Positions 44,299-44,914 of a stretch of DNA of 64,000 nt are shown here, in pieces (position 1 is the first letter of the stretch; every line of letters begins with the position of its first letter). The position numbers and the translations under genes are program-made. The notes beneath the pieces were generated by a model. The model saw only the letters and a program-made list of their open reading frames with translations, was not told where the DNA came from and did no database searches. Origin of the DNA: Escherichia phage LorandFenyves_Bas91. Where the stretch lies: sequence record PQ850614.1. One strand, 5' to 3'.

Positions 44299-44508
44299 TC
44301 AGTAGTAAATTACTTTAGACATAAAAGAACCAGTGTTAGGGTCTTCATACCAGCGATGTATGTCAGCGCTTTTTACTATTGTGCCCAGAGTCTTCAACTG
44401 TTTCTTAGCAATACGAGCCTCTTTGCGAGTGTCAAACAATTTGATGTTATCTTTTCTCATGTGTTGCTCAAGATCCCAAACAACATGAATAGCCCACATC
44501 TTTTTCAT
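44299..44508 (-). CDS. small protein, member 3 of a tandem paralogue triplet
   Basis: 69 aa; shares W...TR(K/Q/E)xAR..KK...hydrophobic...KVxYY pattern with the two upstream genes; ATGA overlap. Confidence 0.5.
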   Translation of the reverse strand: MKKMWAIHVVWDLEQHMRKDNIKLFDTRKEARIAKKQLKTLGTIVKSADIHRWYEDPNTGSFMSKVIYY

Positions 44509-44717
44509 TAGTAATGTACCTTTCCGCTGATATAAACACGACCAGAAGAATACTCCTTGGCCTTATGGATGCTGATACTGTTGACCACGTCACCAGTAAG
44601 CATAGTCTTTTTAAAATCTCGAGCTTGTTGGCGAGTGGGTAGTGCAGTCATAGTCATGCCACCTGATGCCCACTTAATCTTTGCTAACCAAAATTGTCTC
44701 ATAGTGATCGGTCTCAT
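44508..44717 (-). CDS. small protein, member 2 of a tandem paralogue triplet
   Basis: 69 aa; same pattern; coupled at both ends. Confidence 0.5.
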   Translation of the reverse strand: MRPITMRQFWLAKIKWASGGMTMTALPTRQQARDFKKTMLTGDVVNSISIHKAKEYSSGRVYISGKVHY

Positions 44718-44914
44718 TAATAATAAACCTTACTGTTGGCAATAAAAGCACCTTCGCTATTCACAATAGCTTTTCCAATTGTAACCTTGTTAAGCCTAAA
44801 AGTAGACTTGTATTGATTTTTGACCCTACGTGCGTGTTCTCGAGTCTTAACAAAATCTACAGCTACTAACTCTCCAGTCGTGTTATCATGTACACGAACA
44901 ATCCACTTTTTCAT
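44717..44914 (-). CDS. small protein, member 1 of a tandem paralogue triplet
   Basis: 65 aa; same pattern. Confidence 0.5.
   Translation of the reverse strand: MKKWIVRVHDNTTGELVAVDFVKTREHARRVKNQYKSTFRLNKVTIGKAIVNSEGAFIANSKVYY

Follow-up and report, generated by a model that had tools for sequence, protein, structure and literature searches.

What do three small, basic proteins, encoded one behind the other between the dCTP deaminase gene (dcd) and gene 68, do for a phiEco32-like phage? The question is raised by positions 44299 to 44914 of a stretch of 64,000 nucleotides from Escherichia phage LorandFenyves_Bas91 (PQ850614.1), referred to here as the window, which belongs to Kuravirus (Gordonclarkvirinae, phiEco32-like C3 podoviruses). 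The outer limits of this array, its junctions at 44508 and 44717 and the protein sizes of 65 to 69 residues, as given in an earlier note made from the letters alone, were exact in the list of open reading frames (ORFs). The note had not named the strand: all three genes, here called paralogues A, B and C, lie on the minus strand and are transcribed in that order. The locus appears to be an old, maintained, modular gene family and not a recent burst of diversification.

Three diverged members of one protein family

The proposed paralogy of the three genes was borne out by pairwise and profile alignment. All three proteins matched PHROG 4939, a family of unknown function, over their full length (E = 2.1e-27 for A, 6.8e-28 for B and 1.7e-28 for C), with residues 1 to 65 of A covering profile positions 2 to 67. 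In Smith-Waterman alignments assessed against 2000 shuffles, the A-B and B-C pairs both reached z = 8.4 (0 of 2000 shuffles attained the score); the A-C pair (z = 2.0; 114 of 2000 shuffles) was not significant pairwise and was linked through the profile only. Pairwise identity among A, B and C was 23 to 27%. Residues W5, T27, R28 and R32 (numbering of C) were invariant in 32 diverse members of the family that are otherwise 22 to 30% identical, A31 and K35 were nearly invariant, and K/R36, K39, H51, G59 and the terminal Tyr were common, the signature shared by members being W...TRxxARxxK plus a C-terminal Tyr.

No DNA repeats or residual nucleotide similarity were found between the A, B and C copies, and the duplications are therefore old. 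Median pairwise ratios of nonsynonymous to synonymous divergence (dN/dS; Nei-Gojobori) were 0.26 for A, 0.24 for B and 0.36 for C, with dS of up to about 2; each paralogue type is under purifying selection, somewhat relaxed in C. The local triplication and divergence suggested earlier thus holds in the sense of diverged paralogues of one small-gene family, but not in the sense of a recent triplication under diversifying selection, against which both the missing DNA similarity and the purifying dN/dS ratios speak. That the ORFs are not functional genes at all, being chance ORFs or decaying duplicates, is effectively refuted: dN/dS of 0.24 to 0.36 over such synonymous distances, intact orthologues in more than 100 phage records and metagenome contigs, conserved Shine-Dalgarno (SD) and overlap signals and confident predicted folds outweigh the lack of detection of the proteins in the SU10 lysate proteomics described below.

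The three types do not travel together in all phages. In phage 4E8 the C copy has a dS of 0.03 to that of the window and the A and B copies have dS values of 1.5 to 2.0, and EP335 shares A with the window (dS 0.24) and not B and C. Two metagenomic C-type proteins (P0026 and P0035) carry a B-like C-terminal hairpin. Cassettes are, on this evidence, reshuffled between phages.

Signals for translational coupling

All junctions within the array, in 12 loci that included very divergent ones, had the form (A/G)AGGTnnAnTAnTAATG, i.e., (A/G)AGGT-N10-TAATG (Table 1). The Lys/Glu-Val codons (AAG GTn for Lys-Val) at the C terminus of the upstream gene double as the SD sequence of the next gene, and within an array TAA is the only stop found and overlaps the ATG. 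The last copies show relaxed Lys-Val codons (AAA GTA, AAT GTT and AAA GCA, among others) and end in TGA, TAG or TAA. The start-stop overlaps seen earlier are thus present, but not in the four-base form ATGA; the real form is TAATG with one shared base, which reads on the plus strand as CATTA at 44506-44510 and 44715-44719. These junctions also bear on the pattern W...TR(K/Q/E)xAR..KK...KVxYY, in which the earlier note had seen the kinship of the three proteins: all three have the W, T-R, A-R, K and final Y unchanged, but the KV is largely a DNA-level constraint, because its codons form the next SD sequence and relax in the last copies. The final aromatic Tyr is a protein-level constraint.

A conserved overlap with an SD sequence inside the preceding gene, the hallmark of a translationally coupled operon, was found across the 12 loci, and translation of each gene is probably coupled to that of the gene before it. 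The array is co-transcribed with dcd and, as the signals at that junction suggest, probably also translationally coupled to it. With an SD sequence in the upstream Lys-Val codons and TAATG at the junction, the copies can therefore be expected to be synthesized jointly and at comparable levels. The design is economical in that the C-terminal Lys-Val codons serve as the ribosome-binding site of the next copy.

The start of paralogue B appears ambiguous. A second in-frame ATG at 44702 lies 15 nt downstream of the annotated ATG at 44717 and aligns with the M-K/R-x-x-W start of every other family member; 44717 gives the overlap, 44702 is the family-consistent start, and the choice between them decides whether the A/B overlap is real. 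A hidden Markov model (HMM) scan of all window ORFs revealed no further paralogue in the 64 kb, leaving exactly three copies. The array is slightly more A+T-rich than its surroundings (G+C 0.36 to 0.41, versus 0.42 to 0.47 in the flanks).

Table 1. Positions in the window of the array, its junctions and the elements around it
Feature	Position	Strand	Description
Paralogue A	44914..44717	minus	65 residues; first gene of the array; orthologue of phiEco32 gp71
Paralogue B	44717..44508	minus	69 residues from the annotated start, 64 from ATG 44702; orthologue of phiEco32 gp70
Paralogue C	44508..44299	minus	69 residues; last gene of the array; orthologue of phiEco32 gp69
dCTP deaminase-to-A junction	44912..44926	minus	AAAGG at 44926..44922; TAA abuts ATG (TAAATG, 44912-44917)
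A-to-B junction	44715..44731	minus	AAGG at 44731..44728 (Lys-Val codons of A), 10 nt, TAATG; shared base 44717
B-to-C junction	44506..44523	minus	AAAGG at 44523..44519 (Lys-Val codons of B), then TAATG; shared base 44508
P68 core AATGTATA	44273..44266	minus	gp36-type middle promoter by motif search; 26 nt past the stop of C
Conserved stem around P68	44225..44283	minus	44283..44275 pairs with 44233..44225
Dps/ferritin-like gene	43341-43952	minus	beside gp68
Sigma-70 promoter-like site	51517-51545	minus	TTGTCA-17-TATAAT
Run of three small, very basic ORFs	39178-40104	minus	94, 84 and 105 residues; pI 10.1 to 11.5

Distribution, copy number and subfamilies

The 1.6 kb around the array are 96 to 99% identical in DNA sequence to many Kuravirus records of Escherichia and Shigella phages. 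In phiEco32 itself, phi32_71, phi32_70 and phi32_69, annotated as hypothetical proteins, are the counterparts of A, B and C and hold the same position between dCTP deaminase and gp68. Paralogue C is 98.6% identical to phiEco32 gp69 (tblastn), and A and B are about 92% and 87% identical to their counterparts, as counted from the printed sequences. Identical gp69-71 proteins are present in many GenBank records, the genes having been deposited since the phiEco32 genome; no paper discussing phi32_69, phi32_70 or phi32_71 was found in the literature, which was also searched for transcriptomes of Kuravirus and screens of accessory genes. PHROG 4939 and the phiEco32 gp69-71 orthologous group are the only groupings to which A, B and C demonstrably belong, and they show no difference in kind from either.

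The family is restricted to the phiEco32-like phage group. A word-indexed profile search of 5.8 billion proteins gave 114 clusters, the named sources of which were Escherichia phages only; the longest contig per cluster measured anywhere from less than 1 kb to about 80 kb, and many had 70 to 80 kb, in line with the genome size of these phages. An exhaustive HMM search of 1.84 billion representatives gave 29 clusters at E ≤ 1e-3, all of them single-domain proteins of 64 to 79 residues, with no domain fusion or catalytic family among them. Foldseek against BFVD added relatives from Salmonella phage SE131, Cronobacter phages GAP52 and CsaP_009 and Aeromonas phage LAh_8. Salmonella phage 7-11 carries one unannotated copy of 73 residues (E = 2e-6; positions 946-1167 of locus L021, corresponding to NC_015938 40945-41166, minus strand), which occupies the space from gp054 to gp055, runs into the 3' end of the latter and lies away from dcd and thyX; the same protein is annotated in SE131. 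A search with this 7-11-type copy yielded only two additional clusters and no fusions, and tblastn with the most divergent members matched no phage record.

Copy numbers were taken from HMM scans of fetched loci. Three copies in the order A-B-C were found in Kuravirus and Nieuwekanaalvirus; two (B-C) in Suseptimavirus (SU7 and ECBP2) and in PAS59, which is filed under Kuravirus in its record; B-C together with two unrelated ORFs in EcoN5 (hhalign); four (A-B-D-C) in metagenome contig L014; and, downstream of dcd in L012, L013 and L015, two copies that belong to other types. A dispersed fifth type, E, lies between thioredoxin and ThyX in L018, Paul and WFI101126. The subfamily combinations were B+C, B+D, A+B+C, A+B+D+C and A+B+C plus the dispersed E, and a neighbor-joining tree resolved at least five subfamilies. 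Distribution and copy number among relatives, a check named in the earlier note, thus came out as variable, with 1 to 4 copies per genome, and as confined to phiEco32-like phages. Types A, B and C are orthologous lineages across Kuravirus and Nieuwekanaalvirus, and B and C also in Suseptimavirus; B is the subfamily found in all Gordonclarkvirinae loci examined, in both two-copy and three-copy arrays.

In EcoN5 (L007, 315-1250) an HNH endonuclease gene and two unrelated small ORFs stand where copy A would be, and the 73-residue ORF in copy A's place was not a detectable member of the family (hhalign probability 0.3%). The arrangement looks like a local replacement beside a homing-endonuclease-type gene.

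Predicted fold and candidate functions

AlphaFold2 models built with a 34-sequence alignment gave C (pLDDT 85.2) and A (pLDDT 87.3) the same beta-beta-alpha-beta-beta order; pLDDT fell below 50 for the last three residues of A (VYY). By structure comparison the predicted fold is an alpha/beta sandwich of two layers, its single helix packing on an antiparallel sheet of four strands, and 55 to 64 residues superpose at 2.3 to 3.0 A. Foldseek against the PDB gave no match below E = 0.29. In Pfam and NCBIfam, A, B and C were nowhere near the cutoff, and no family was common to more than one of 32 members at E ≤ 5; Cauli_VI gave a single weak match (E = 0.15) in 1 of the 32. The best match of the family profile among PDB sequences reached only E = 0.13 and covered a strand-helix segment of the CELF1 RNA recognition motif (RRM), a class of RNA-binding domains that is defined, with the ferredoxin-like ones, by beta-alpha-beta-beta-alpha-beta topology and the motifs RNP1 and RNP2. 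The five-stranded beta-barrel of OB-fold single-stranded DNA-binding proteins was not found. Resemblances to AP2/ERF-type DNA-binding domains, DUF2188 and the N-terminal domain of RNase H1 were considered and found no backing in any search, the Cauli_VI match being their only trace.

All 32 members are basic (pI 9.5 to 11.1, net charge +5 to +12, 65 to 78 residues), including the three of the window (pI 9.8 to 10.6, net charge +6 to +9), and the conserved basic residues at positions i, i+4, i+7/8 and i+11 of the single helix form one face. Our tentative preference, held as a possibility, is that the proteins are non-enzymatic binders of polyanions, most likely of DNA or RNA, and that the paralogues differ in specificity or assemble together. 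Nucleic acid is the most likely ligand because of the overall charge, the lack of a catalytic signature and the context of replication and deoxynucleoside triphosphate (dNTP) genes; a common ligand class is probable because subfamilies at about 25% identity keep the same exposed-looking Arg/Lys face of the helix. The proteins would act during the replication and nucleotide-metabolism phase, the invariant Arg/Lys residues of the helix (T-R-x-x-A-R-x-x-K-K/R-x-x-K) would provide the binding face, and the conserved Trp, His and C-terminal Tyr may assist in binding. The paralogues may be subfunctionalized or form a hetero-oligomer, either of which would account for the maintenance of each type by purifying selection and for its lack of redundancy. 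Small basic proteins that bind or shape nucleic acids, such as Sso7d/Cren7, HU-like proteins and phage histone-like proteins, are alike in size (7 to 8 kDa), pI (about 10), single-domain build and lack of catalytic motifs, and no single-stranded DNA-binding, histone-like or architectural protein is annotated in this replication/dNTP cluster. RNA polymerase is an unlikely target, because pull-downs of the enzyme from phiEco32-infected cells recovered only gp36 and gp79 (PMC12276001).

Several points weigh against nucleic acid binding. Of the 41 small ORFs of this phage, 9 have a pI of 9.7 or higher, so that a basic charge is nothing rare here and by itself says little. A structural role of the conserved Arg residues, such as pairing with the C-terminal carboxylate, is also conceivable. 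In a polyethylene glycol-concentrated SU10 lysate, in which 34 phage proteins including gp65, gp67 and gp68 were found, gp69-71 were not detected, with the caveat that very small Lys/Arg-rich proteins yield few tryptic peptides.

The earlier note had called the locus typical of host-interaction or anti-defense families. Read in this way, each paralogue would block a different host protein, e.g., a component of a restriction or abortive-infection system, and the array would grow, shrink and swap genes under host pressure. We regard this as doubtful. A copy number varying from 1 to 4, the differing combinations of at least five subfamilies, mosaic cassettes between otherwise similar phages, the C-type proteins with a B-like hairpin, the slightly lower G+C content of the array and the narrow, phage-only distribution all fit, as does the reportedly remarkable resistance of Gordonclarkvirinae to restriction-modification (RM), for which no modification or inhibitor is known (PMC11990801). 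Selection, however, is purifying and not diversifying, and the single invariant basic helix motif in all subfamilies argues for a common ligand class. The proteins, with a pI of about 10, are also unlike the acidic DNA mimics Ocr, ArdA, Ugi and p56, of which p56 appeared in Foldseek at E = 1.6 to 2.4 only. No significant structural similarity was found to small phage inhibitors with solved structures (anti-CRISPRs and the Dmd antitoxin). The genes moreover lie at a promoter-distal place within the replication cluster and do not belong to the first early genes, so that their products would come late for guarding incoming DNA. Variable copy number and cassette exchange are thus consistent with the typicality claimed earlier but not specific to it, and no anti-defense family was matched.

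Tandem arrays of small accessory genes are known from lytic phages, for example as anti-CRISPR loci and the internal-protein genes of T4. The present locus resembles them in the small size of its genes, tandem paralogues, variable copy number, cassette exchange and confinement to one phage lineage; it differs in its old paralogues, purifying selection, one invariant motif, location in a replication/dNTP cluster and lack of any anti-defense match. The T4 internal proteins are late products packaged into the virion, whereas the gp69-71 genes are not late genes and their products were not seen in virion-enriched material. The locus would thus be placed as a tandem, coupling-signal-bearing family of small phage accessory genes, of a familiar kind and functionally unplaced.

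The position of the array might point to a different role, within dNTP metabolism. Dcd lies directly 5' of the array in the window, phiEco32, EP335, L012, L013 and L015, coupling signals follow dcd in nearly all loci, and the dispersed E copy lies between thioredoxin and ThyX. The proteins might then bind small ligands or serve as regulatory subunits, either by binding nucleotides, as a sponge or as a buffer for nucleotide signals or pools, or by docking on dCTP deaminase or ThyX so as to modulate these enzymes or anchor them at the replisome. The conserved Trp, His and Tyr together with Arg/Lys would suit base stacking and phosphate binding, and the C-terminal ...Y tail of A is modeled with low confidence, as docking tails often are. 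Such a role nevertheless appears improbable. Synteny adds little evidence of its own, since the entire cluster is collinear throughout this phage group, and the single copy of phage 7-11 lies away from dcd and thyX. The high positive charge suits a polymeric anion better than a single nucleotide, and neither Tad1, Tad2 and Acb2-type sponges nor any nucleotide-binding fold was matched.

A further, very improbable reading is a new class of small, basic DNA-coating or nucleic-acid-binding proteins, hetero-oligomeric, that would shield replicating DNA or block contact between nuclease and DNA and so contribute to the RM resistance of Gordonclarkvirinae, or a new fold that would sequester an immune signaling nucleotide. 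The probability left after the readings named falls to something else.

The finding is solid but ordinary, that of an uncharacterized phage ORFan family, and its value so far is descriptive: a family defined, with at least five subfamilies, 1 to 4 copies per genome, signature residues, a predicted fold and a coupling design. Should a function be established, it would give an annotation to genes that every phiEco32-like phage conserves, and it might bear on the restriction resistance of these phages, which are being isolated more and more often for therapy and have entered the BASEL collection.

Transcription and neighboring genes

On the minus strand the order of genes is primase-helicase, Pol exonuclease subunit, nucleotidyltransferase, dCTP deaminase, A, B, C, promoter P68, gp68, Dps-like, a small ORF, thioredoxin and ThyX; the order dcd, array, gp68, Dps-like is identical in the window and phiEco32. 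The motif AATGTATA just past C is the core of the gp36-dependent promoter consensus tAATGTAtA, and the phiEco32 promoter ahead of gene 68 has been mapped experimentally and used for a cryo-electron microscopy open complex (PMC8948821; PMC12276001). The transcription unit of the triplet has its 3' boundary in the P68 region. No other gp36-type motif was found upstream of the array within the window, and the triplet is therefore the promoter-distal end of a leftward unit with the nucleotidyltransferase gene and dcd.

A conserved stem surrounds P68, with its 5' arm upstream of the AATGTATA core and its 3' arm covering the SD sequence (GGAGAG) and ATG of the gp68 homologue. It folds as RNA at -20 kcal/mol (z = -3.0), and compensatory changes occur in 4E8 and EP335 (TCACTCTC/GAGAGTGA), L012 (TCTCTTGTCTC/GAGACAAGGGA) and L015. 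In a transcript that reads through from the triplet, the ribosome-binding site of gp68 would be concealed, and RNA initiated at P68 would be without the 5' arm; alternatively, the stem could be a processing or termination signal.

The window contains exactly six AATGTATA motifs (6854, 23766 and 33669 on the plus strand; 33596, 40141 and 44266 on the minus strand), with about 2.7 expected by chance. Their number and orientation, three per strand, match the six mapped gp36-dependent promoters of phiEco32 (genes 6, 13, 26, 40, 58 and 68). Further upstream of the array, a sigma-70 promoter-like site, near consensus at 11 of 12 positions, lies inside a small ORF that precedes a RimK-like gene (by coordinate conversion, window = Bas90 minus 844) and may serve as an internal promoter for the operon of which the triplet is the last part.

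Many Kuravirus genomes, MN05, NJ01, Paul, IMEP8, SU10 and 4E8 among them, have an extra 68-residue gene (MTKEEFQELKY...; in locus L002 at 2512-2718) between dCTP deaminase and copy A. It is absent from the window and accounts for a length difference of about 200 bp in megablast hits. As a fourth paralogue it was rejected, being unrelated to the family. Several deposited Kuravirus records call the Dps/ferritin-like gene beside gp68 an "integrase", and in phiEco32 it goes by "DNA binding protein, Dps family"; the name "integrase" looks like an annotation error passed on from record to record. The AATGTATA motif at 40141 is closely followed, on its downstream side, by another run of three short and strongly basic ORFs (Table 1).
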